NCBI RefSeq assembly: GCF_026626585.1
Contig: NZ_JAPNKD010000018.1
Location: forward strand, 267,718 to 318,520
Source of the DNA: Nannocystis sp. ILAH1
Lineage (GTDB): Bacteria > Myxococcota_A > Polyangia > Nannocystales > Nannocystaceae
Length of the DNA stretch: 50,803 nt
Direction: 5' to 3'
In this document: positions 16,509 through 50,803 of the stretch, in pieces
Layout: each line of letters starts with the position of its first letter
How positions within the stretch are numbered: the stretch's first letter is position 1
Translations under genes and position numbers: made by a program
Notes under the pieces: model-generated
Database searches by the model: none
The model's input: the letters and a program-made list of their open reading frames with translations, nothing else
What the model was told of the DNA's origin: nothing

Positions 16509-17180
16509 TCAGCCCTTGTTGTTGCCGGCCTTGATGGCGGGCTTGACGGCGGCGCGGATGGTCACGAAGCCGTTGTTGGGGCCGGGGATCGGGCCGCGCA
16601 CCAGGACCAGGCCGCGCTCGGCGTCGATCTTGACGACCTCGAGGTTCTGCAGGGTGACGCGCTCGTGGCCCATGTGGCCGGTCATGCGCTTGCCGCGGTG
16701 GACGCGGCCGGGGGTCTTGCGGCAGCCGATCGAACCGCCGTGGCGGAAGAACTCGTGCTGGCCGTGGCTGTTCTTCTCGCCCTCCATGTTGTGGCGCTTG
16801 ATGACGCCCTGGTAGCCCTTGCCCTTGGAGGTGCCGGTGATGTCGACGCGGGTGCCCTCCTTGAACAGGTCGGCGCCGAGCTGGCTGCCGACCGGGTGGG
16901 CGGCGAGCGCCGCGGCGGGGACGCGGAACTCCTTGTGGACGTAGAAGGTGCCGACCTTGGCGGCCTCGGCGGCGCCCTTCTCGGGCTTGCTGGCGCGGTT
17001 GGCCTTCTTCTCGGCGAAGCCGACCTGCAGGGCGGTGTACGTGTCGCGCTCGTCGGTACGGTGAGCGGTGACGGTGTTGCCGGTGACGTGCAGGACGGTG
17101 ACGGGGACGCGGTCGCCCTCGTCCTTGAACACCTGCGTCATTCCAAGCTTTTTGGCGATGAGACCGATCTGGAAATTCAT
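16509..17180 (-). CDS. rplC: 50S ribosomal protein L3
   Basis: ORF 16509..17180. The sequence is a canonical L3: MNFQIGLIAKKLGMTQVF...GTSKGKGYQGVIKRHN...GHMGHERVTLQNLEVVKIDAERGLVLVRGPIPG. A GGAG motif lies upstream. Confidence 0.92.
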   Translation of the reverse strand: MNFQIGLIAKKLGMTQVFKDEGDRVPVTVLHVTGNTVTAHRTDERDTYTALQVGFAEKKANRASKPEKGAAEAAKVGTFYVHKEFRVPAAALAAHPVGSQLGADLFKEGTRVDITGTSKGKGYQGVIKRHNMEGEKNSHGQHEFFRHGGSIGCRKTPGRVHRGKRMTGHMGHERVTLQNLEVVKIDAERGLVLVRGPIPGPNNGFVTIRAAVKPAIKAGNNKG

Positions 17181-39365: not shown

Positions 39366-40028
39366 TCAGGGCGGCGGCGGCAGGTCGTCTGCGGCCTCCT
39401 GGCGCAGCTTGGACCATATGCGCAGGAGCTCCGCGCTGCGCGGGTCGAGGCTGCCGCGGGCGCGTACCGCCGCCTCGACCACGACGATCCGCGCCACCAG
39501 GGCCGGCTGCACGTCGGCGGTCGGGAGGTCGCGCAGCGTGTTGGTCGCCGCCTCGATGAAGTCGATCGGCGCGACCTCCTGCATGAATGTGAGCACCGGC
39601 TCGACCGACTCCGCCTTCGGCACCGCGCTGATCATCTCGAGGAACGTGATCACCTTCCATTGCGGCCACAGGTCGCCGAACTTGAGGATCACCTCCCAGC
39701 ACAGCGGCAAGATCGCCGGCCCGTAGTCGTTGCGGGCCTTCATCCCGTACCGGGTCCAGATCCGCGAGATGCCGGTGACCTTCCTGCCCTCGGCGGCGAC
39801 GTTGACCTGATCGAGCTCCGCGAGCACCTGACGATACAGCGCCGCGTGCTCGCTCCAGCCGCGGACGATCGCCGCCAGCGTCCGCCACAGCCAGTCGGGG
39901 TCGCCGGCGTACGCCGGCAGGTAGGTCATCACCGCCGTCGGGTCGGCGAGCACCCGGTCACGCTGGTGCGTGTAGTCCTCGCCGTGAAGCCTCCGCAGCG
40001 CCGCGAACTCTGGCCATTTCTGCGTCAT
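39366..40028 (-). CDS. hypothetical protein (220 aa), between the deiminase and the sirtuin
   Basis: Lower part of ORF 39366..40202. ATG 40028 (MTQKWPEFAALRRLHGEDYTHQ...) overlaps the upstream gene's stop by 4 nt. Confidence 0.65.
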   Translation of the reverse strand: MTQKWPEFAALRRLHGEDYTHQRDRVLADPTAVMTYLPAYAGDPDWLWRTLAAIVRGWSEHAALYRQVLAELDQVNVAAEGRKVTGISRIWTRYGMKARNDYGPAILPLCWEVILKFGDLWPQWKVITFLEMISAVPKAESVEPVLTFMQEVAPIDFIEAATNTLRDLPTADVQPALVARIVVVEAAVRARGSLDPRSAELLRIWSKLRQEAADDLPPPP

Positions 40029-41269
40029 ACCTGCTGCTCCCACCACCAGCGATCGACCGGCGGCTCCCGCTTGCTGTTCGTCCCGCAGTGGATCTCGCCG
40101 TAATTGACGTGATACGTGAAGAAATCGTCGACGAACTCGAGGTCGACGCCGGTGTCGGCCGGCGGCCCGAGCGCGGTGCGGATGTTGCTCTCGAACTGGC
40201 ACACCCCGCCGACCTCCGGCCCGAACGGCTTGGGGATCACCAGCCGCACCGTCTTGTCGGGTTTCGTCAATACCAGCATGTTGACCACCCCTGGCGTGTA
40301 CGCGACGTGAAGATTATTTTCGGTCGTCATGAACAGCACCGGCAACGGGATGAAGTCGGTCTCCGCGAGGTCGAGCTCGTCCATGAGCTTGGCCTTGATG
40401 CCATCGATGGAGCCCTGCACCGTCGTCTGCACGTTCATGAAAGACGAGTCGTCGAGCACCTCGTCGACCGTGCGCAGGTGGTAGCTGTCGTATTGGTCCT
40501 GCGGCGTCATGACATCCGGCGGATGATCGGGCAGCGGCGGCGGCGGCGTGAGCCGCAGCAGCGGCGCGGTGCCCTGCCGCGCCGCTTTGAGTCGGCGCAG
40601 GATCGACACCGCTTCCGTCGGGCTGGCGAGCGCGACCTTGAACTTCTTGGGCGCGTTCTTCACCGGCACGAACGACATCACCTCGTCGACGTGACCGACC
40701 TCCAGCCACCCGGTGTTGAGCGCGAACGGCTCCTGGACCCGCTGCGCGCGCAGGAAATCGACGACATCGCGCTGCATGTTGCGCCGGGCGGTGCCGCCGG
40801 GGTGCTCGCCGTAGATCAGGCGGCCGAACTTGTACTCCTTGCCGCGACCGCTGTGGGTGAACGGCGGCGAGCACTCGAGGTTGCCGAACGAGTCGAGGGT
40901 GCCGCCGCTCTTGCTCGGCGGCATCGCCTGGACCCACCCGAAGCCGGGCTCGAGCATCCGTTCGCGCGGGTAGCGGTCGATGGGCCCCCAGCCCAGGATT
41001 GGACGCGAGTCGTTGGCCGTCGCTTGCGCGCCAAACGCTCCAGCGGCCCCGACGCGCAGCGCCGGTGGTGCCGGCGAGGGCGAGGACGCAGTCGTGGGCA
41101 AGCGGGGCCCGCTGGCCTCCTCGAGTGCGGCAAAGTAGGCGCCGGTGCCCCAGCGTGGGAACGTCGGGGCCCGACGCTCGACCGAGCCAAACGCCCCTTG
41201 CCTGCCGGGCTTCTTGAGACGGCCGTGTTTGACGGGATGGCCGATGTAAAGCGCAGCTTGCGCGTTCAT
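40025..41269 (-). CDS. eukaryote-type protein-arginine deiminase (PAD/PADI catalytic domain) homologue
   Basis: Lower part of ORF 40025..41494. ATG 41269 ([18 protein letters not shown]...). The C-terminus [34 protein letters not shown] closely matches the PADI catalytic-Cys region (FFTYH...GEVHCGTN...WW). Also [15 protein letters not shown]. About 414 aa, with no N-terminal Ig-like domains. Confidence 0.75.
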   Translation of the reverse strand: [414 protein letters not shown]

Positions 41270-41604
41270 GCTGATTTCCGTCTGGAGATCCCGGCCGTCC
41301 GCCACCTCTGAGATGGCGACAAGGGCCTTCTTGGCAGCGGCGGTGCCTGAGAGGACAGTCTGCGTGGTGGTGGTGCGGCCACCGCCCTGGCGGCGGGCGG
41401 ACCAGGCGGTGACGCCAAGTGATCTCGCCGGCTCTCTCAAAGCGGCGCTGAGGGACGGCGCCAGAGTAACGGCGGCAGGCCGATGGATATGCAACTACCA
41501 CCACAGAACGACGGTCCGTCTGCTCGCCGCGGAAGGTCCTTTTCTGCCTCGACAAAATCCCGTCTTCGACCGAGAATATCCGTGGCACGACCGACTCTTG
41601 CGTT

Positions 41605-41626
41605 AGATTGCACATTGGGGCAATCT
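41605..41626. promoter_or_regulatory. inverted repeat AGATTGC-N8-GCAATCT immediately upstream of the 41634 start codon
   Basis: Seen directly in the sequence. It lies in a locally AT-rich divergent region between the deiminase operon and the lipoprotein gene. Confidence 0.35.
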
Positions 41627-41633
41627 CGCGCCC

Positions 41634-42416
41634 ATGAAGAGGATGAGCATCCTGAGAAGATTGGGGATCTGCCTACTTTGTGCGGCGGCATGTGGTAAGG
41701 TCGACGAAACCGGCGACGCAACTGATGGAGGAGCAACGACCACGACCGCGGCCGCGGCCGCAGACACCGGCGAGGCATGCACACCGGGGTATGAAAGCTG
41801 TGAGTGCGTCGGTGGCGAGGTATGTCTCGCGGGCTTGTCGTGTGTCTCGAAGGTATGCGTCGACCTAGGCGAGTTGACGACCTCGGGGGGCGGCAGCGCC
41901 GGCGAGACGACCGGTAAGGATACCAGCGAGGAGCCACCGCCGACAGGCACCTGCTCTGTCACGGCCGAGTGCGCCGACACGGAGATCTGCGTCGACGGTT
42001 TCTGCGGCGACACTGACCTGTATTACTTCGACGTCCGCGTGACGAGGTTCGCGCCGGACGACTGTAGCGACGGATGGGGCGCCGGCGAGGTCTACTTCGC
42101 GTTCTACTCGGGGACGGAGAGCCAGCTACAGGGAGTGTCGACCTGGTCCTACTGTCCTGCGGACTGGAGTGATTTCGAGATGCCATTATACGACTCACTG
42201 ACGCCGTTCCAGCTTGACTTCTGGGAGGATGACGAGTTTGAGGACGACTATATGGCGACGCTCTGCTGGGACGCCGACGGCAACGCCAACTCGACCGACC
42301 CGTGTAGCGTCGTACCCAAGCACTGGTTGCGCGAAGGCACAGTGACTGGCTACATCGGCTCGTCCAACCAGTACGGTATCACGGTGACGTTCACGCAGCG
42401 TCCGTGGGAAGGTTGA
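41634..42416 (+). CDS. Cys-rich lipoprotein, function unknown
   Basis: ORF 41634..42416. Signal MKRMSILRRLGICLLCAAAC. Cys-rich modules (CTPGYESCECVGGEVCLAGLSCVSKVC, CSVTAECADTEICVDGFC). The C-terminal domain is acidic. Confidence 0.8.
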   Translation: MKRMSILRRLGICLLCAAACGKVDETGDATDGGATTTTAAAAADTGEACTPGYESCECVGGEVCLAGLSCVSKVCVDLGELTTSGGGSAGETTGKDTSEEPPPTGTCSVTAECADTEICVDGFCGDTDLYYFDVRVTRFAPDDCSDGWGAGEVYFAFYSGTESQLQGVSTWSYCPADWSDFEMPLYDSLTPFQLDFWEDDEFEDDYMATLCWDADGNANSTDPCSVVPKHWLREGTVTGYIGSSNQYGITVTFTQRPWEG

Positions 42417-42425
42417 GCACCCGAC

Positions 42426-43148
42426 ATGCGTCCGGCCGTCCTCGTCCTGCTCAGTATCTCGCTTGTCGCAGCTCCCTCCGCCGCGAAGCGCCCGCCCAAG
42501 GCCAAGCCGGTCGTGTCGCGCAAAGAAGCGGCCCCGCCAGCGCCGGCAATTCCGGCGAGCTCGTGGCGCGCGTTGAAGGATGCATGGATTGAAGTGTCGC
42601 TGCGTGATGGGGGAGTGGTACAGGGGCGACTTGCTGGTTCCGACGACAGGACGGCGACGATCGTCGAGAAGTCCGGCCATGTGCGTGCGCTCGCTATCGC
42701 CGACGCTCTCGAGCTCCGACAAGTTGCTGCTCCACCGGCACCACCCCCACCAGCACCTCTGACACTTGAGGCCAAGGACGCCGCGCGTGTGGCGGCGCTC
42801 GAGAAGCAGTACGGCGCCGGCTACACCAAGCCCAAGGGCAAGAAGATGCACACCGCTGGGTCCGTCATCCTCTCGCTCGGGCTCACACAGGCGGTGCTCG
42901 GCGTGGGCTTCGGGATCGTAACCGCCCTTTCCCAAGATGACGTATTCCGCGCGACCAGCATCGGCCTCTTGATTAGCGGCGGCATCACGATCGCGGTGGG
43001 CATACCCCTTATGGTCAAAGGCAGGGAGCGGCGCCTCGATTATCACGAATGGCTTCAGCAGCAGTCCTTAGGGGGGCAAGCCCGCGTAGTTCCCGGCATC
43101 ACCCCCCTACGTGGCGGTGGCGGTGTAAATCTGCGCATTTCCTTCTAA
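42426..43148 (+). CDS. secreted protein, function unknown (C-terminal 2-TM region)
   Basis: ORF 42426..43148. Signal MRPAVLVLLSISLVAAPSAA. Confidence 0.65.
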   Translation: MRPAVLVLLSISLVAAPSAAKRPPKAKPVVSRKEAAPPAPAIPASSWRALKDAWIEVSLRDGGVVQGRLAGSDDRTATIVEKSGHVRALAIADALELRQVAAPPAPPPPAPLTLEAKDAARVAALEKQYGAGYTKPKGKKMHTAGSVILSLGLTQAVLGVGFGIVTALSQDDVFRATSIGLLISGGITIAVGIPLMVKGRERRLDYHEWLQQQSLGGQARVVPGITPLRGGGGVNLRISF

Positions 43149-43199
43149 GTGGGCCGACTTTTCTTGAGAGCGTAGACCTCCGCTCTGCGTGCGCAGTCT

Positions 43200-43994
43200 C
43201 TACCTTAAGGCATGCATGTCGAGTTGATCGACGAGAATCTCCCGCAGGCGCCTGAGTTCCCGCTCGGAGTCGGCGTCGATACTGACTGAATCGTAGGAAA
43301 CGTCGCTCGGATAGAGCATGAGCGAGGCGTCACTGCGGTTGTAGTATGCGAGCTCTCCCGTCATGTAGGGCACTGGGGCGAACCCGAGTCTTTCCGCGAG
43401 CTCCCGGAACCGGGCCATGCGCGCTGCCATGGGCGGCACGCCGGCTTTACGAGCTGTCGACCGGCGCAGCTCAGCCCGGTGCGGCAGGACTTCGGTGCGG
43501 AGGAAGCGGAACGCCTCGCAGTAGAGGAACTGCATCAGGCTGTGGCAGTGGTGGTAGATGTACACATGATGCGATCCTGGGATAGGCTGGCCTTCATCGT
43601 CAAAGCCCCACTCATAACCGACCACCGGGAACGGGGGGCTCTGAGTGGTGTCGAGGAACATCTCGGACTGTCGGTCGAGCGTCCACAGGTATACAGCTCC
43701 TGGTGGGGCAGGGACCGTGGGGGCCCCGTAGAACGTGGCGATCACGTCGATGCCGAAATCATAGTCCTCCATGAATGGAGCGGCGGCTCCGTGCGGGGTG
43801 CGACCCAGGCGTCGAAGGAAGGCCCGAAGTTCGGGCGGAAACGCGAAGCCCGCGCGCATCTCTAGGCGGCGGATATCGTCCTCGGACGCGGGTGCGAAGC
43901 GAGCGCCAAACCCTTCGACATAAACAGCGAAGTACCGGACCCACGCGTCGAGCTCGGTAGCCCAGAAGTGTTCGTCGTCCCTATTTGGCGTCAT
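43200..43994 (-). CDS. hypothetical protein, in a lower-GC island
   Basis: ORF 43200..43994. The local GC is clearly lower than the flanks. There is no recognisable motif. Confidence 0.55.
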   Translation of the reverse strand: MTPNRDDEHFWATELDAWVRYFAVYVEGFGARFAPASEDDIRRLEMRAGFAFPPELRAFLRRLGRTPHGAAAPFMEDYDFGIDVIATFYGAPTVPAPPGAVYLWTLDRQSEMFLDTTQSPPFPVVGYEWGFDDEGQPIPGSHHVYIYHHCHSLMQFLYCEAFRFLRTEVLPHRAELRRSTARKAGVPPMAARMARFRELAERLGFAPVPYMTGELAYYNRSDASLMLYPSDVSYDSVSIDADSERELRRLREILVDQLDMHALR

Positions 43995-44234
43995 GTCTTT
44001 TCCTCAGGCGATGCTGGGTTCGTACACATCATGGAAGCCAGAATTCGCTTACAGGTGTTACAGGATGGCTTGTATCTCCTGTTCCGACTCTCGGGTATTT
44101 GCTCCAGTACCCTGAGGCTCACGCTCTTGCCCGCAGGAGCAGGAAGCATCTCCGCGTGGAATGCCGCGAAGAGCGTTTTACTCGGCACAGTTACCAGGGG
44201 GATGCTTGTCGTATTGAGCGCGCGGTCGTCGAAC

Positions 44235-44617
44235 TCATGGGGCTGGGGAAAGGAGCTGGGCCAGCCAGTGGATGATCAAGGTGTCGAGCGCGCCGGACTC
44301 GCGGCAGCTCGTCGGGTCGAGGTAGACGACGGGGTCGGTGGGACGGGGCGGGCGGGCAAGGCGCCGCTCGGCGAGGATGATGGCTTTCGGGTGGACGTCG
44401 TTGCCGAAGGCGTGGGGCCGGTCGGCGAGGTAGCCGTGCATCTTGAGATAGGCGGCGCGGAGGTAGCCGAGGTCGCTGGACAGTTTAGCGTCGAGCAGGA
44501 GTTCGAACTTGCGGCGGTCGTCCTCGAAGACGAGGCGGAGGTCGGGGCGCAGGTGCGCCCTCGCATCGTAGGCGTGAAGGAGGGCTAGTGTGTAGGCGCC
44601 GCGCTCGGCCGGCTGGT
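44235..44617 (-). pseudogene. C-terminal fragment of the McrC-like gene split by the IS21 insertion
   Basis: This is track ORF 44235..44633 minus its IS-derived start. It continues in frame from the N-terminal fragment 47335..48194 once the IS and one TSD copy are removed (...LFYNQP|AERGAYTLALLHAYD...). It contains a PD-(D/E)xK-like motif, RPDLRLVF...ELLLDAK. Confidence 0.6.
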
Positions 44618-44736
44618 TGCGTATTCCGGCCATCGTGATCGCGTGGATCGGTCATCGTGATCACTCCGGAGGTCGGAGCGGAGCGACGCGGTTGCGGGCT
44701 CGGCGCGGACGGAGCGAAGCGACGCTGATGGGGTGT

Positions 44737-45441
44737 TCAGGTCTGGGAGGCGACCTCCTTGCGGCGTGATGGGCCTTTTAGCATGAGGCGGTGGCACTGG
44801 GAGAGCATGCGATCGCAAATCGCATCAGCGGTTGTGGGGTCGCCGATCTGGTCGTGCCAGAGCTCGGGCGAGCGCTGGCTGGTCAGGATGGTGGAGCGTT
44901 CACCGAATCGATCCTCCATCAGTTCGGACATGTCTCTTCGCTCGGCCGGTCCGAGCGGGGTCATGGCCCAGTCGTCGAGGATCAGGACGTCGACGCGGGC
45001 GAGCTTGGCGAGCAATCTTGCATAGGTCCCGTCGGCGCGGGCGAGCGCGAGCTCGTCGAAGAGCCGCGAGGTGCGGCGGTACATGGCGCGGTAGCGGCGG
45101 CGGAGGGCGTGCTGGGCGAGGGCGCAGGCGAGGAAGGACTTCCCGGTGCCCGTCGGGCCGGTGATGGCGATGTTCTGGTGCTAGGCGACCCAGTTGCAGG
45201 TCGCGAGCTGGCGGATCAGCGGCTTGTCGAGCTCGCGGCGGTCGTCGTAGTCGAGGTCCTCGAGGCAGGCGCTGCCGAGCTTGAGGCGCGCCTCCTTGAG
45301 GTTGCGCTTGAGGCGGGCGTTCTGCCGGCTCATCCACTCGGAGTCGACGAGGAGGCCGAGGCGCTCGTCGAAGCCGAGGCCACCGTAGTCGGGCCGCGAC
45401 TGCTGCTCGAGCCAGGCTGCGGCGAGACCGTTCAGCCGCAT
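44737..45441 (-). pseudogene. istB: IS21 helper ATPase IstB with an in-frame amber stop (TAG at 45181-45183) just before the Walker A motif
   Basis: Track ORFs 45181..45441 and 44737..45084 are in the same frame. The sequence between them reads HQNIAITGPTGTGKSFLACA (Walker A) straight after the TAG. The C-terminus is VDVLILDDWAMTPL...ERSTILTSQRSPELW. Confidence 0.8.
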
Positions 45442-45492
45442 TCTTTGAGCTTGTCCATGGTCTGCTGATTCATCATCGATGTGTCTTTTCGG

Positions 45493-47040
45493 TCAGTTGT
45501 AGTAGCGAGGGCCGCGGATGTTCTCGTGGGCCTCGGGCTTGTCGGCCGGTATGTCGGCGGGGATATCGGGCAGCGGGGCGCGGTCGAGGCCGTTCTTGAG
45601 GATCGATTCGACGTGGCGGTACGAGCGAGCGCGCACGGCCACGGCACGGGCGCAGGCGGCCTCGAGGCGCGCGTCGCCGTAGGTCTTGCCCAGGCGCAGG
45701 ATGCCGAGGCAGGCGCGGTAGCCGTGCTCGGGGTGCTTGCGGTCCTTCATGATGGCCTGGGCGAGCTCGGCGGTCTTCGGGCCGACCTGCTTCGCCTGGG
45801 CGAGGATCCGGCTCGGCGAGCGATCGGCGTGCCGCTGGTGGGCCTTCGGCATGTGCTCGGGCTTGGTGGTATGGCGACCCGCGGCGAAGCTGCGCGCGTG
45901 CGAGGTGATGCGCTTGCCGCCGTGCAGGAGCCCGACGGTCGTCGCGGTGAAGCGCGCCTCGACGGCCTCGCCGACGAGGGTGTACGGCACCGAGTAGTAG
46001 TGGCGATCGATCTCGACGTGGTAGTCGATGTTGACGCGGCACGTCTTCCACTCGCAGTACTCAAATCGCTCGACGGGGAGCGGTCGCAGTTCCGATCGCT
46101 CGATGCGCTCGAAGAGGGCGCGACGGCTGATGTTGCCGTACTTCTTCATCGGCCGGGTGTTGAGGTCCTCGAGCAGCTCGGCGACCCGCGCATTGAGCTC
46201 CGCGAGCGAGTGGAAGACCTCGTCGCGCAGGCGCGCGACGATCCACCGCTGGGCGATCAGCATGGCGTTCTCGACCTTGGCCTTGTCGCGCGGCTTGCCG
46301 GGCCTGGCCGGCATGACGGTGGTGCCGTAGTGCTCCGCGAGCGCGGCGTAGGTTCGCTGGATCTTCGGGTCGTACCAGCACGACTTCGTCACCGCGGCCT
46401 TGAGCTGGTCGGGCACCAGCGCCGCCGGCACGCCGCCGAAGTACTCGAGCATGCGCGCGTTGCTGGCGATGAAGTCGTGGCCCCGCTGCGTCAGGCTCGC
46501 CTCGGCGTAGGTGAGGTTCGAGGCCCCGAGCACGCCGACGAAGAGCTCGACCGCGATGCACTCGCCGGTCTTCGGATCGACGATGTGCAGCCTGTTACCC
46601 GAGTAGTCGACGAAGGCCTTGTCACCGGCCACGTGGTCGATCCGCATCGTCCAGCCGCGCTGCTTCAGCCAGGTTCGGTACAGCTCGCAGAATTGCGTGT
46701 AGCGATACCCGTCCCGGTTCTTCTCGAGGTACTCGACGTGCAGCAGCGCGAGCGTGACGCCCTTCCGCCGCCGCTGCGCGTGGATATGCGTGAAATCAGG
46801 CAGCGGCCTCGCCCGCGACGCCGGCTCGCCGTCGTAGACGACCCGCTCCAGTGCCTCGTCGCTGAGGGCCTGCACGGCCTCCCAGGTGAGGCCGGCCTCA
46901 CTCGCCTTGCCCACGACCTTGCCGACGACGCCGGCGCTGACGTCGAGGCTCGCAGCCACGTCCCGGTGGCTTCGCTGCAGCGCCCACTTCTGGCGCAGGA
47001 TCTCGCGGATGTTCTTCATGGTCAGTCGCTGCGTCGCCAT
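45493..47040 (-). CDS. istA: IS21-family transposase IstA
   Basis: Frame of ORF 45493..47178. ATG 47040 (MATQRLTMKNIREILRQKWALQRSHRDVAASLDVSAGVVGK), with a GGGAGG RBS 5 nt upstream. It has an HTH domain plus an integrase core (DYSGNRLHIVD...). Confidence 0.9.
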   Translation of the reverse strand: MATQRLTMKNIREILRQKWALQRSHRDVAASLDVSAGVVGKVVGKASEAGLTWEAVQALSDEALERVVYDGEPASRARPLPDFTHIHAQRRRKGVTLALLHVEYLEKNRDGYRYTQFCELYRTWLKQRGWTMRIDHVAGDKAFVDYSGNRLHIVDPKTGECIAVELFVGVLGASNLTYAEASLTQRGHDFIASNARMLEYFGGVPAALVPDQLKAAVTKSCWYDPKIQRTYAALAEHYGTTVMPARPGKPRDKAKVENAMLIAQRWIVARLRDEVFHSLAELNARVAELLEDLNTRPMKKYGNISRRALFERIERSELRPLPVERFEYCEWKTCRVNIDYHVEIDRHYYSVPYTLVGEAVEARFTATTVGLLHGGKRITSHARSFAAGRHTTKPEHMPKAHQRHADRSPSRILAQAKQVGPKTAELAQAIMKDRKHPEHGYRACLGILRLGKTYGDARLEAACARAVAVRARSYRHVESILKNGLDRAPLPDIPADIPADKPEAHENIRGPRYYN

Positions 47041-47172
47041 TTCGCCTCCCACGCGAAATGGCCGGTGATTCAGCGTCGACCTCGCCCCCTCGCGCATTCG
47101 GCTGCGCGTAACACGCGGAGGCGGCTCCGTTCCTTGGAGTCTCGGCCGCCGGCCGGCGCACTCGCCGCCGGT

Positions 47173-47315
47173 GATCACGAGGACCGATCTGGGCGATCAC
47201 GATGCCGATCGGCGCGATCACGATGCCGATCGGCGCGATCACGACGCCGACCGGCGTGATCACGATGCCGATCTACGCGATCACGAGGGACCGATCTGGG
47301 CGATCACGATGGGCC
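47173..47315. repeat. array of about 6 x 21-bp GATC-rich repeats (GATCACGATGCCGATCGGCGC) in the IS21 left terminal region
   Basis: Copies at roughly 47173, 47195, 47216, 47237, 47258, 47279 and 47304. The first and last copies are the variant GATCACGAGGRACCGATCTGGGC. Each unit carries two GATC sites. Inverted copies of the unit lie at 44632-44665 at the other end. Confidence 0.8.
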
Positions 47316-48194
47316 GTTTTCCGCAGGCTGGTTGTAGAAGAGGCGCAGAACGGCCTGGCCTTCGCGCCAGGTGGCGATGGCCCGACGGTTGGCAGCGATC
47401 AGGGTGTTCTTGCGGGTGGCCGCGGGCCAGGCGCGGTCGATGGATTCAATCAGGGTGAGCAGGATGTAGAGCTCGAAGCGCGTCTCGGGCTGATACGGGA
47501 CGAGGGAGTAGCGGGCGAGGGCGTCGCGCAGGTGCTCGAGTTTGGGGCGAGGGAGGAGGTTGGCGTGGTCGTGGGCGATGATGGCGGCGTGGCGGATCGC
47601 GGCATCGCGGCTCTGCTGGCACGCGCGGTAGGTGTCGGCAGTCGGGCGTGACTCGGGGAGGTCGCGCAGCGCGGCGTGTCGGAGGCAGGTCTCGGCGGCG
47701 TTGTGGATCCGCGAGAGGCGTCCGATCCAGAGATCGTCGCGTGCATATTCGCTCGGGCCGAGCGTCGCGGCGGCGAGGCGGATCCGCTCGACGAGCCAGC
47801 GAACGAGCAGGAGCTCCTGCGTACTGAAGGACCGGCGGAGGCTGGTGGTGATGGCACGAGCGGGATCGCGGGTCTGTTGCCGGAGGACCAGGGTACGGCC
47901 CCAGTCGATCCGGCCGCGGACATGGCCGCGGAGCTCCTCGCGGACGCGTTCACTGCGCGGGTGGATCCGGCGCAGGTAGGCCGGGAGGTCGTCGCAGACG
48001 AGGCGCTCGACGCCGCTGCCGGGGTCGAGCAGGAAGGCGAGCGCGGCGAGCTGGTGCAGGCTGTCGGCGTCGCCGGCGAGGCGGGCGAGCGCGCGGGCGA
48101 CGGCGGTAGCCGGGCGCGGGTGGCCCTCGGCGCAGCGCAGGAGGTACGCCGGGAACTGTCCTTCGAGCCAGGTCTCCCAGGAGCGCTCGGTCAT
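47304..48194 (-). pseudogene. N-terminal fragment of the McrC-like gene, partner of the McrB-like GTPase; truncated by the IS21 insertion
   Basis: ORF 47304..48194. Its last three codons plus the stop (GPS*) come from the IS tip. Its ATG overlaps the McrB-like stop (ATGA). Confidence 0.6.
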
Positions 48195-49876
48195 GGGCGG
48201 CGGAGGTGCGGGAAGTAGCTGCGCAGGCTGGTGTTCAGCTCGTGGCGGACGTCATCCTCGGTGAAGAGGCGCTCGATCCGGGAGATGGCCTCCTGGGCGT
48301 GGTTGTCCTCGGCGCCTTCGAGCTGGGGGAAGACGAGCAGCTCGACGCCCTCGCCGAGGGCCCGCTGGTGGCTGGCGCCGGGGCGCTGGGCGGCGTACTG
48401 GAGGAGGTCGAGGAGCAGCGCTGGGCCGAGATCGACGGCGCTGCCGAGGCCCTGCGCACGCGAAAGGACGCGCGCGGCAAGCTCCCAGCGGTCGGGGGCG
48501 ATCCCGTGGGATTCACCTGCCCGCTGGGCCAGGCGACGCAGGGCGTCGTCGTCGAGGCCAGGAACATGCACCGCCGCGAAGCGGCGCATGAAGGCATAGG
48601 ACAGGCGAAACAGGCTGGCCTTGTCGCGCACGTTCATGGTGGCGATCAGGCGGATGTGCGGGCCGAAGTTGTAGGGCTCGGCGCCGGGGCCGATCATAAC
48701 CTCGCGACCGTCGGCGTCGGTGTAGGCGGTGACGACGGTGCCGCCGCTGAGGACGGTGAACAGCTCGCCGAAACATTTATCGATGTCGGCACGGTTGACC
48801 TCGTCGAGGACGATCCACCGACGCTCGCGCAGGGCGCGGGTGACGATACCCTCGCGGAAGGCGAGGCGGGTGTCAGCCTGCTGGGCCCAGCCGCCGATCG
48901 TGTCATAGGTCGACCAGTCGGCCGAGGCGGTGGCGAGCTTGGCCTCGCCGCCGCAGGCGCCGTCGGCGTGGGCCTGGGAGGCGAGCGCGGCCGCAATCGT
49001 GCTTTTGCCGGTGCCCGGCGGGCCGAGCAGGAGGAGGTGCTTACCGGCGTTGAGGGCGGCGCAGCAGCGCTCGAGGACGCCGGGCGGGCACTCGAAAGCG
49101 CCCAGGCGGGCGAGGACGTTCTCGGGAGTGAGGGCGAGTGGGGTGAAGGTGGACGCGAGGAGATCCGCAAGGATAGCCACACTCGTGAGTTCGTTGGGCT
49201 CGTCGGTGACTGAGTTGTCCTCGTCGTCTGCGGGGTTGCTCAGCCCCGATCCCTCGATCTTGAAGAGGGACTCGCCGCGGATCTTCGTGCGCGCGAAGGA
49301 GTAGAAGTGGGCCTTGATCAGCGCGAGGGTGACGAAGCGGCGCAGCACCTCGCCTGGGACGGGGCTCCAAGATCGGCTTTCGAGGTCGTATGTGCCGCAC
49401 ACGATCTCAGACTTGTTGCCCAGGCCGCTCTCGCCCGCCACCTCGCGCGCCTGCTCGCCGTAGCGGCTGTTGCGCTCAGGATCGTCGTCGAGGACGCGCT
49501 CATAAAAGCTGTTGCGGACGAGCAGCCGCACCTGGCGCTGTTTGGCGCGGATCGCGTCGCGGACACCGAACTCGAGGTTGGACCAGAGGACCAGGCCGGA
49601 GCTCTTCGAGACCCATACCCCAAGGCCCGTGGCGTGGCCGCTATCCTCGGGTCGGCCCGAGCGGTTGATGTTATCTTTACGGATTCGGACCGGGAGCGCG
49701 ATTTCGCCGCCAGACCAGCGGACGAGAAGCTGGCGGCGATCGCCGTCGCGCGTGTCTTCGGCGATCTCAATGTCGCGTCGGGCGACCTTCCACGTGCGCG
49801 GCAACTCGGCGTCGAGGAGCGTCTGGAAAGCCTCGCGCGTGGTTTCCTCGGATTGTTCGAGCGATGGGAGTGCCAT
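48191..49876 (-). CDS. McrB-like AAA+ (AAA_5) GTPase subunit of a McrBC-type restriction system, with a ~280-aa N-terminal domain of unknown specificity
   Basis: ORF 48191..49876. LLLLGPPGTGKSTIA, then WIVLDEVNRADIDKCFGELFTVL (the McrB-type DEINRAN..K.FGEL motif), then RLIATMNVRDKASLFRLSYAFMRRF. A GAAGGA RBS is present. Confidence 0.8.
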   Translation of the reverse strand: MALPSLEQSEETTREAFQTLLDAELPRTWKVARRDIEIAEDTRDGDRRQLLVRWSGGEIALPVRIRKDNINRSGRPEDSGHATGLGVWVSKSSGLVLWSNLEFGVRDAIRAKQRQVRLLVRNSFYERVLDDDPERNSRYGEQAREVAGESGLGNKSEIVCGTYDLESRSWSPVPGEVLRRFVTLALIKAHFYSFARTKIRGESLFKIEGSGLSNPADDEDNSVTDEPNELTSVAILADLLASTFTPLALTPENVLARLGAFECPPGVLERCCAALNAGKHLLLLGPPGTGKSTIAAALASQAHADGACGGEAKLATASADWSTYDTIGGWAQQADTRLAFREGIVTRALRERRWIVLDEVNRADIDKCFGELFTVLSGGTVVTAYTDADGREVMIGPGAEPYNFGPHIRLIATMNVRDKASLFRLSYAFMRRFAAVHVPGLDDDALRRLAQRAGESHGIAPDRWELAARVLSRAQGLGSAVDLGPALLLDLLQYAAQRPGASHQRALGEGVELLVFPQLEGAEDNHAQEAISRIERLFTEDDVRHELNTSLRSYFPHLRRP

Positions 49877-49887
49877 GATCCTTCAGT

Positions 49888-50118
49888 TCACTGCTGTGGC
49901 GGGGCAGGCGGCGTCGGAGCCGAGTCTGGCATCAAGTGGGAGAGGTTGTGCTCGGCGAGCCGCTCGCGGATTTCCTTGCGGAAGCTCTCTAGCAGGTTGC
50001 TGAAAAAGTCCCGGCCGGCCCAAATCGGCATGTCCATTCGGACAGAACATGGCCGAATTCGGCCGCGCAGGGCACTTCTCGATGATGAGTGGGGCGGCTT
50101 CGCGGGCTCCGTCGCCAT
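49888..50118 (-). CDS. hypothetical small protein (76 aa)
   Basis: ORF 49888..50118 is tightly packed between neighbours (gaps of 12 and 4 nt). It contains two GGRCATG units (array 10), which argues against it being a real gene. Confidence 0.25.
   Translation of the reverse strand: MATEPAKPPHSSSRSALRGRIRPCSVRMDMPIWAGRDFFSNLLESFRKEIRERLAEHNLSHLMPDSAPTPPAPPQQ
50025..50055 (+). repeat. array 10 of the GGRCATGYY repeat family (2 units, weaker)
   Basis: cggcatgtcca and gaacatggcc, with CATG cores at 50029 and 50048. Confidence 0.4.
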
Positions 50119-50121
50119 TTT

Positions 50122-50803
50122 TCAGCGACCTGCTAGCGACGATCGTAGGTTCGGAGCCAGCGGAGTCTTGTGTTTGGCCGCCAATTCCTCGAGAGACTGG
50201 ACGGAGTCGATCAAGCGGGGGACAGTACGCAGCAGATCGACAAGGGCGCGGCCGGAGATATGGTCGCAGGCGTGCCTGTGCTGTTCGACCATGGGGACGC
50301 TGGCATCATTTTGCGTGCGCTTCTTGAAGTGTTCCAGTTCATTCGTTAGCCGCTCCCGCGCCTGTCCGAATCCCTGGAGCGCACGGAGGTAGACACGGAA
50401 AAGACGCAAGTTCTCTCTGGCGACCGATTCGCGCATCATGATGTCGTCTTTGCCGATGTCGCCCAGGGAGGCGAGCATCTTCACCTGCCGCTCGAACATG
50501 TCGACGCGCTCGATGAAGTTCTTGGACTGGGCCTGGGCCAGGTCGGTTGCGCTGCCCAGCGCGGTCATCGAGTCGGCCAGAAAGAACACGGCAAAGTGTC
50601 CGAACAGCGCGGCCTCTGCCTGTAACACCGCCTGGAGGGGCGTGATCCGGCCGAAGCCGAGCCTGCGCCGGACGTCCTGGAGCTGTTCGAGCGCGGGGAT
50701 CTCATAGCGCGGTTCGGCGAGGCCGCGTAGGACATGAATGGCCGCGATCACCAGGAACGCGGCCTTGAGAGCGGCGAAGTCGCCGTCTTGCCAGGTCTCA
50801 AGG
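50122..50803 (-). CDS. hypothetical protein (5' end outside the window), in the accessory island
   Basis: ORF 50122..50751 stays open upstream to the window edge (...LETWQDGDFAALKAAFLV IAAIHVLRG...). Lower GC. No recognisable motif. Confidence 0.5.
   Translation of the reverse strand, partial: LETWQDGDFAALKAAFLVIAAIHVLRGLAEPRYEIPALEQLQDVRRRLGFGRITPLQAVLQAEAALFGHFAVFFLADSMTALGSATDLAQAQSKNFIERVDMFERQVKMLASLGDIGKDDIMMRESVARENLRLFRVYLRALQGFGQARERLTNELEHFKKRTQNDASVPMVEQHRHACDHISGRALVDLLRTVPRLIDSVQSLEELAAKHKTPLAPNLRSSLAGR

Follow-up and report, generated by a model that had tools for sequence, protein, structure and literature searches.

An IS21-family element splits the nuclease gene of a probable McrBC-type restriction module in Nannocystis sp. 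ILAH1

In a 50,803-nucleotide stretch of contig NZ_JAPNKD010000018.1 of Nannocystis sp. ILAH1 (the window, numbered from its first letter), two overlapping genes encode an AAA+ ATPase and a partner protein that very probably make up a McrBC-type (Type IV-like) restriction module, whose nuclease gene was recently split by an insertion sequence (IS) of the IS21 family. A preliminary description of this DNA, made from the sequence alone, had proposed a restriction module inactivated in this way; the split of the nuclease gene is confirmed here, and inactivation is its probable outcome. The minus strand carries all the genes of the locus, which are transcribed in the following order: the tail of an upstream gene, the McrB-like gene, the 5' part of the McrC-like gene, the IS (istA then istB), the 3' part of the McrC-like gene, a fragment of a toxin gene and an SMI1/KNR4 immunity gene (Table 1).

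Results

An IS21-family element interrupts the partner gene

The IS starts with TG at 44618 and ends with CA at 47325, 2 bp short of the end first placed at 47327, and its ends form imperfect inverted repeats (TGCGTATTCCGGCCATCGTGATCGC versus TGCGGAAAACGGCCCATCGTGATCGC). Its family assignment, made in the preliminary description, is borne out by its coding content. The IstA open reading frame (ORF) scores 252.9 bits (E 4.4e-75) against the NCBIfam model NF033546 transpos_IS21, for which the cutoff is 160 bits, and the two fragments of istB match Pfam IstB_IS21 at profile positions 6–89 and 125–235. The true start of istA is probably downstream of its listed GTG, the NCBIfam match starting at residue 62. 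The istB gene is present downstream of istA but is defective in this copy: its single-frame translation contains one stop, directly before the Walker A motif, at a codon that reads TAG in the window and CAG in a second copy of the element from Nannocystis pusilla Na p29. Because of this nonsense codon, the ILAH1 copy is probably unable to make the helper ATPase itself and dependent on another copy for it.

The element resembles members of the IS21 family (IS21, IS408, IS1162 and IS5376 type) in its consecutive istA (DDE transposase) and istB (AAA+ helper) genes, its TG...CA termini, the several short repeats inside both ends and its short target duplication (7 bp in the window, 6 bp in the N. 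pusilla copy), and differs from them in the nonsense codon. The core of the repeats, which have a unit of about 21 bp, occurs eight times against 0.82 matches expected by chance, and we presume the repeats to be transposase-binding sites. The N. pusilla copy, which turned up when one genome per species was scanned for exact matches, is 93.6% identical and lies at an unrelated site, flanked by a different, 6-bp direct repeat (GCCACG); it has the same TGCG...CGCA ends as the window copy and so fixes the limits of the element independently of the window. Rearranged fragments of this element (80–96% identity to the window IS) were also seen at 17122–18845 of L012 (loci of relatives are given L numbers), just downstream of DrmB; the element thus also populates the defence island of that relative.

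The flanking GGCTGGT had been read as a target-site duplication. A 7-mer match at these fixed positions has a chance probability of about 2e-4 in this base composition. Removal of 44618..47332, that is, of the IS and one repeat copy, fuses the ORFs 47304..48194 and 44235..44617 without a frameshift into a 1245-nt ORF; the in-frame join had been predicted correctly, its length of about 417 residues less so, as the restored ORF has 414 codons. The reconstruction is upheld by the sister strain Nannocystis sp. RBIL2, whose intact 414-residue protein aligns without gaps to the restored one at 98% identity (403/413) and has exactly the same junction peptide, LFYNQPAERGAYTLAL. The protein of RBIL2, a cultured strain, is one of five intact 414-residue proteins in the 90% cluster of the truncated ORF. 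A database search with the restored protein found 23 relatives, most of them full length (406–434 residues), and the best (P0001, intact) was 94% identical over 100% of its 414 residues.

The DNA of the contigs L003 (92% identity) and L012/L013 (87–90%), which are uninterrupted, reads TTCTA(C/T)AACCAGCCAGCCGAGCGC at the corresponding position. We searched these IS-free sequences for a second copy of the 7-mer, and in L003, L012 and L013 ACCAGCC, the reverse complement of GGCTGGT, is found once, at the same codon. These are empty sites, and with a single 7-mer in uninterrupted contigs the duplication is real.

Table 1. Features of the locus in order of transcription, with positions in the window
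Feature	Position	Strand	Remarks
Gene upstream of the McrB-like gene, 3' part	50122..50803 (runs off the window)	-	about 225 residues; homologue of 479/489-residue proteins
McrB-like AAA+ (predicted GTPase) gene	48191..49876	-	561 residues, intact; contains VLDEVNRADIDKCFGELFTVL
N-terminal domain comparison stretch	49252-49876	-	codons 1-208; compared with L012 8316-8940
McrC-like gene, 5' part	47333..48194	-	codons 1 to about 287 plus first target copy; N-terminal helices, predicted beta-stalk with tip helix (80-122), helical bundle
Target-site duplication GGCTGGT	47326..47332	.	istA-proximal side of the IS
IS21-family IS	44618..47325 (2708 bp)	-	TG...CA termini, imperfect terminal inverted repeats; same orientation as the mcrBC-like genes
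Tandem repeats of about 21 bp, core GCGATCACGATG	47173..47311		six copies, istA-proximal IS end
istA transposase ORF	45493..47178	-	561 residues from GTG; NF033546 plus Pfam rve and Mu-transpos_C_2
istB helper ATPase gene	44737..45441	-	Pfam IstB_IS21 on two fragments; in-frame TAG at 45181-45183
Two inverted copies of the repeat of about 21 bp	44631-44664		istB-proximal IS end
Target-site duplication GGCTGGT	44611..44617	.	istB-proximal side of the IS
McrC-like gene, 3' part	44235..44617	-	codons about 288-414; whole predicted PD-(D/E)xK catalytic core (RPD313 ... D330-A-K332)
Module breakpoint and 3' end of Tox-PAAR-like toxin gene	44015..44215	-	homology switch
SMI1/KNR4 immunity gene	43200..43994	-	Pfam SMI1_KNR4 sub-threshold; NCBI name SMI1/KNR4 family

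The ATPase carries the motifs of a McrB-type motor

The ATPase is 100% identical to the database entry 'AAA family ATPase, Nannocystis sp. ILAH1' and is made up of an N-terminal domain of about 208 residues, a disordered linker (about 209–242) and an AAA+ domain (about 250–561). In an alignment of 22 members of the family, the Walker A motif GPPGTGKS (285–292) and the Walker B motif LDEVN (D358 and E359) are invariant, as are N415 and D418 of the loop ATMNVRDKA and the tandem arginines R431 and R432 with the F433 that follows them. An NxxD loop (consensus MNxxDR) is the signature of McrB-like GTPases and is needed for hydrolysis, and the tandem arginines, R348/R349 in Escherichia coli, act in trans as sensor 2 and arginine finger (PMC7680126, PMC11090510). 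Alignment of the 22-member profile with E. coli McrB by hhalign (probability 98.5%, E 3.8e-15, 247 columns) placed the NxxD loop against MNTADRS and the arginines against YALRRRF. Further paired stretches (E. coli first, window family second) were LQGPPGVGKT / LLGPPGTGKS, IIDEINRANLSKVFGEV / VLDEVNRADIDKCFGEL and LMNTADRSLAVVDYALRRRF / TMNVRDKASLFRLSYAFMRRF, the aligned motifs being GPPGxGK, DExNRA, MNxxD(R/K) and RRF. The motif that the preliminary description took as diagnostic is present but belongs to the Walker B region; what really marks McrB is NxxD, also found here.

In a phmmer search of PDB sequences, AAA modules of midasin came first, followed by McrB of Thermococcus gammatolerans (1.9e-10) and of E. 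coli (6.5e-8). The best NCBIfam match was McrB, yet its 26.9 bits fall short of the cutoff of 637; PADLOC gave just a weak match to mad8, and Pfam only the generic AAA_5 (E 3.8e-19). One relative of the ATPase (45% identity over an aligned 56%, essentially the AAA+ half) carries an N-terminal Pfam EVE domain, which fits the habit of McrB proteins of swapping reader domains.

The arrangement is that of the characterized McrBC systems of E. coli K-12 (EcoKMcrBC) and T. gammatolerans (PDB 6HZ4, 6UT6, 6UT5 and 6UT7), in which there are likewise two overlapping genes with the motor first, and the motor has both Walker motifs, the NxxD loop, the tandem arginine pair and a separate N-terminal domain linked to it. 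Judged by its sequence, the ATPase appears to be a McrB-type motor, and the first assignment as an AAA_5 GTPase of this type gains support from the NxxD loop, the arginine pair and the hhalign match; it would be expected to be specific for GTP.

The partner resembles McrC in predicted structure

The overlap on which translational coupling of the two genes had been proposed is in place: the ATG of the McrC-like gene at 48194 overlaps the TGA of the ATPase gene as ATGA (CCCATGACC). Overlaps of 4–8 bp are found wherever both genes are intact, in L001, L003, L009, L012/L013 and a 76.9-kb contig from the Joint Genome Institute (JGI); in the Minicystis locus L011, a 147-residue ORF lies between the ATPase and partner genes, and the partner is shorter, at 376 residues.

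From an alignment of 22 sequences of the partner family we built an AlphaFold2 model of the restored protein (predicted local distance difference test score (pLDDT) 88.4; predicted template modelling score 0.79). The first three matches of this model in a Foldseek search of the PDB were McrC chains, 6ut7_G (2.8e-6), 6hz4_M (1.1e-5) and 6ut6_G (1.2e-4), and FokI, BamHI and MunI came after them. The alignments with McrC span about 390–440 columns with a template modelling (TM) score of 0.23, which limits the McrC claim; a score as low as this would be expected of an elongated multi-domain protein. The nuclease domain of the model has a PD-(D/E)xK fold. RPDLRLVF...ELLLDAK, picked out earlier as a PD-(D/E)xK-like motif in the C-terminal part of the joined ORF, is present in the restored protein, is conserved and maps to this restriction-endonuclease fold: R311 and P312 are invariant, at least 90% of the 22 sequences share D313, D330, A331 and K332, and the model places D313 and D330-A-K332 on adjacent strands (314–319 and 324–332).

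Towards the N-terminus, the model contains a long beta hairpin (80–89 and 113–122) with a tip helix (98–108), followed by helices. R93, W98, T101, D110 and R121 are invariant in the hairpin and tip, and R121 and R132 are the invariant arginines of the bundle. McrC has been described as having a 'stalk with a loop-helix-loop tip' (PMC7680126), to which the modelled hairpin may be equivalent, and a conserved basic residue of McrC (R263 in T. gammatolerans, K157 in E. coli) reshapes the active site of McrB. Matches to Pfam DUF2357 were found in five of the 22 family members, all sub-threshold (best E 3.1e-4, below the 23.3-bit cutoff) and collinear (protein residues ~104–177 against profile positions 144–224), and one member gave a weak match to Pfam McrBC; the window protein itself had no DUF2357 match. 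The identification of the partner as McrC, as first suggested, is thus favoured by the three leading Foldseek matches and by the PD..DxK residues, whereas profile searches gave no match above threshold. Like McrC of E. coli and T. gammatolerans, the partner is predicted to combine a stalk and helical region at the N-terminus with a PD-(D/E)xK (PD...DxK) nuclease at the C-terminus; it differs from both in having about 75 extra N-terminal helical residues, and from E. coli McrC in lacking significant sequence similarity and falling below the Pfam DUF2357/McrBC thresholds.

By analogy with the solved McrBC complexes of E. coli and Thermococcus, we infer how the intact module would act. The 561-residue McrB-like protein would assemble into a nucleotide-driven AAA+ hexamer, presumably fuelled by GTP, with its N-terminal domains of about 208 residues reading the target, which we expect to be DNA rather than RNA and to be recognized in a modification-dependent way. 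The 414-residue McrC-like protein would put its N-terminal stalk into the ring's pore and stimulate hydrolysis, and its C-terminal PD-(D/E)xK domain would then cut the DNA.

Weighing the McrBC assignment

Several results weigh against this assignment. Neither Pfam nor PADLOC offered a family for the restored partner at E ≤ 0.1, and NCBIfam gave only an irrelevant sub-threshold match to PqqD_rel_X (E 0.021, 15.7 bits, cutoff 35). The partner protein and its family profile found no match among PDB sequences, and hhalign aligned the family with E. coli McrC at a probability of 0.3%, the lone aligned stretch (RGRIDWxRT versus KGRIEFAKT) being suggestive at most; PHROGs had no match for the partner either. 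The profile of the ATPase N-terminal domain retrieved only noise from PDB sequences and Pfam (gpW, UDG and VWA_3_C, E > 0.03). In Foldseek, the full-length ATPase model (pLDDT 83.5) hit AAA+ proteins only, McrB (3e-10) ranking narrowly behind NorQ and CbbQ of the MoxR class (E ~2e-11), and modelled structure alone does not discriminate, for the AAA+ domain, between MoxR-type NorQ/CbbQ and McrB.

The Foldseek ranking, the generic AAA_5 assignment by Pfam and the label 'MoxR-like ATPase' that JGI gives to many relatives would also suit a MoxR/NorQ-type AAA+ chaperone or remodeller, with an unrelated adaptor as its partner and no nuclease-based defence. We consider this most improbable: MNxxD(K) and RRF, both invariant, match up with the McrB signature, the partner lacks a VWA domain and does have conserved PD..DxK residues on a restriction-endonuclease fold, its best Foldseek matches are McrC chains, and relatives carry EVE reader domains and lie in a defence-island context.

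Consequences of the insertion

The IS lies after codon 289 of the McrC-like gene, between the first strand (281–287) and the first helix (295–304) of the predicted nuclease core. The interrupted 5' ORF continues into IS sequence as far as a stop at 47304, encoding 296 residues (289 native and seven IS-encoded); this product would keep the stalk and helical bundle and lacks every catalytic residue. The downstream ORF, of 132 residues, takes its ATG from within the IS terminal repeat, and no Shine–Dalgarno-like sequence was seen directly upstream of this ATG. With no catalytic residues in the upstream product and a catalytic part that lacks a translation start of its own, the module would most likely have lost DNA cleavage, the ATPase gene remaining intact. 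NCBI annotates the halves as separate hypothetical proteins, OV203_41240 (296 residues) and OV203_41225 (132 residues). Neither half (44235–44633 and 47304–48194) is marked as a pseudogene in the public ILAH1 annotation.

Both McrC-like halves are free of stops and frameshifts, their ratios of non-synonymous to synonymous substitution rates (dN/dS) relative to L012 are 0.15 and 0.11, and the insertion looks recent. The stop-free halves might also be explained if the insertion were not inactivating, the two parts of McrC being made separately and reassembling, with the C-terminal part translated from the ATG in the IS end. That ATG is in frame with the nuclease core, and the IS is co-oriented with the operon, making read-through transcripts possible. 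Even so, we think such a split enzyme very unlikely: besides the missing Shine–Dalgarno-like sequence, the break cuts strand 281–287 off from the remainder of the predicted nuclease domain, and a recent insertion, in a protein with 98% identity to its RBIL2 orthologue, explains the lack of decay equally well.

A narrowly distributed N-terminal domain

The N-terminal ~280 residues of the ATPase had been described as one domain without a recognizable motif. The absence of a motif stands; the single domain does not, as the AlphaFold2 model resolves the region into two parts: residues 1 to about 208 (pLDDT mostly above 90) form a domain of mixed alpha/beta type, and 209–242 (pLDDT below 50) are the disordered linker. 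The domain is unrelated by sequence to DUF3578/ADAM, EVE and YTH; its profile showed no similarity to the EVE-containing relative, and PHROGs had no match for it. When 1.84 billion cluster representatives were searched exhaustively with HMMER, just 17 contained the domain, and all the named sources among these are Myxococcota. The full-length proteins among the 17 are McrB-like, with 552–556, 588, ~708–751 or 1012 residues, and the six shorter entries (168–320 residues) contain little beyond the domain itself.

Between ILAH1 and RBIL2, the AAA+ half of the ATPase is near identical, and the N-terminal 250 residues differ at about one-third of positions. In comparison with L012, synonymous divergence (dS) is 0.79 in the N-terminal domain (dN/dS 0.28); the AAA+ domain has 0.21 and the McrC-like partner 0.19. 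Because dS is raised about fourfold relative to the rest of the operon, the sequences point to replacement of the domain by recombination with a more distant allele and not merely to positive selection. Such an exchange pattern is typical of specificity modules.

Genomic neighbourhood and the link to DISARM

The preliminary description placed the module in a lower-GC accessory island. 'Accessory region' is a reasonable term, and 'lower-GC' fits the module itself only weakly: G+C content is 0.664 for 40000–50803 against 0.726 for 1–39999, and the McrBC genes, at 0.685–0.717, are mildly lower, the lowest value (0.622) belonging to the toxin/immunity stretch (41500–44234). No tRNA gene that might mark an island boundary was found within the window. 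At the start of the lower-GC stretch, a 489-residue ORF (40025–41494, minus strand) matches the protein-arginine deiminase catalytic domain PF03068 (PAD; E 7.7e-79), a family that we take to be the animal type of PAD and to be rare among bacteria.

Past the stop of the partner gene, homology to L012 continues for 22 nt, as far as 44213, and at 44215 homology to the last ~70 codons of a toxin gene begins. The toxin-tip/immunity stretch of the window is 92% identical to a complete toxin–immunity pair in L014, which lies upstream of the SNF2 gene and DISARM operon of a 44-kb metagenome contig covered by L012 and L014. In the window this stretch looks like an orphan toxin-tip plus immunity cassette, or a rearrangement breakpoint.

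On the other side, the tail of the gene upstream of the McrB-like gene is related to two paralogous L012 proteins of 489 and 479 residues (tblastn; 41% over 223 residues, E 6.5e-43, and 38% over 243 residues, E 7.9e-34), which lie between DrmMI and the McrB-like gene in L012/L013. A 209-residue ORF at 50122..50751 was considered as kin of a 209-residue gene downstream of McrC in L001; the two are unrelated, and the ORF is part of the longer gene.

The neighbourhoods of relatives are defence islands with DISARM, HNH, UvrD-PDDEXK and AAA_15/21 genes. In L009 and the 44-kb contig, the gene pair lies inside a DISARM class 1 operon (DISARM stretches: L012 1–16887, L014 7570–15524 and L009 1–14928). 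The order in the 44-kb contig is SNF2 helicase, DrmMI, genes for proteins of 345, 479 and 489 residues, McrB, McrC, DrmA and DrmB, with PADLOC matches for DrmMI (E = 0), DrmA (E = 0) and DrmB (E 3.6e-81). The 345-, 479- and 489-residue proteins of L012 had no match in Pfam, PADLOC or PHROG, and their genes are absent from L009. In L001, L011 and the 76.9-kb contig, the pair stands without DISARM genes, next to other defence genes. When DrmA, DrmB, DrmD and DrmMI of L012 were used as tblastn queries, nothing was found within the window, which ends in the gene upstream of McrB.

A branch of McrBC systems often linked to DISARM-like cassettes has been mentioned without detail (Bell et al. 2024, eLife, PMC11090510; Bell et al. 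2025, bioRxiv 10.1101/2025.09.15.676423). L012/L013 and L009 share its gene order, namely SNF2, PglX/DrmMI-like methyltransferase, McrB, McrC, YprA-like helicase (DrmA) and DUF1998 (DrmB); the window differs from it in having no DrmA or DrmB, and some relatives differ in being stand-alone pairs.

These neighbourhoods raise the question of whether the pair is an effector or accessory module of DISARM class 1, the ILAH1 copy being an orphaned, decaying remnant that lost DrmA and DrmB and whose nuclease gene was hit by the IS. Such a history would account for the position of the pair between DrmMI and DrmA–DrmB in L009 and in L012/L013, where the genes are 87–90% identical to those of the window at the DNA level, with an SNF2 (DrmD-like) helicase upstream; for the gene directly upstream of McrB that the window and L012 have in common; for the break in homology about 20 nt past the McrC stop, in a window without DrmA or DrmB; and for the published link of an McrBC branch to DISARM-like cassettes. 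We nevertheless find it somewhat unlikely, as canonical McrBC acts alone and a shared location in a defence island is no proof of functional dependence. With stand-alone pairs in other relatives, dependence on DISARM is a rival reading rather than a conclusion. A further proposal would make the N-terminal domain an undescribed, rapidly exchanged target reader and have this McrBC lineage, together with the 345-, 479- and 489-residue proteins, serve DISARM class 1 as an integrated effector arm instead of being a classical methyl-dependent Type IV enzyme; we hold this to be unlikely. A McrBC-type module with an IS-split nuclease gene is the reading we retain, in a locus that is a rearranged mosaic of conflict systems and in which the disrupted pair may be the remainder of a larger DISARM–McrBC array.

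Discussion

McrBC is a known kind of system, of which this module would be a new and divergent member, and its disruption by an IS is routine decay of a defence gene. What is mildly new is the unrecognized McrC lineage, the narrowly distributed, recombining N-terminal domain of its motor, and the embedding of the lineage in DISARM operons.

PADLOC and Pfam are blind to the partner, and the public record has the motor as a generic AAA ATPase; with its partner unrecognized by these resources, this McrBC lineage is missed by defence-system censuses in myxobacteria. The in silico repair and the intact RBIL2 orthologue together provide a ready construct for a McrBC system with a candidate new recognition domain. 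Both the mosaic history of this domain and the embedding of the pair in DISARM operons of relatives bear on how McrBC modules cooperate with DISARM-like systems.

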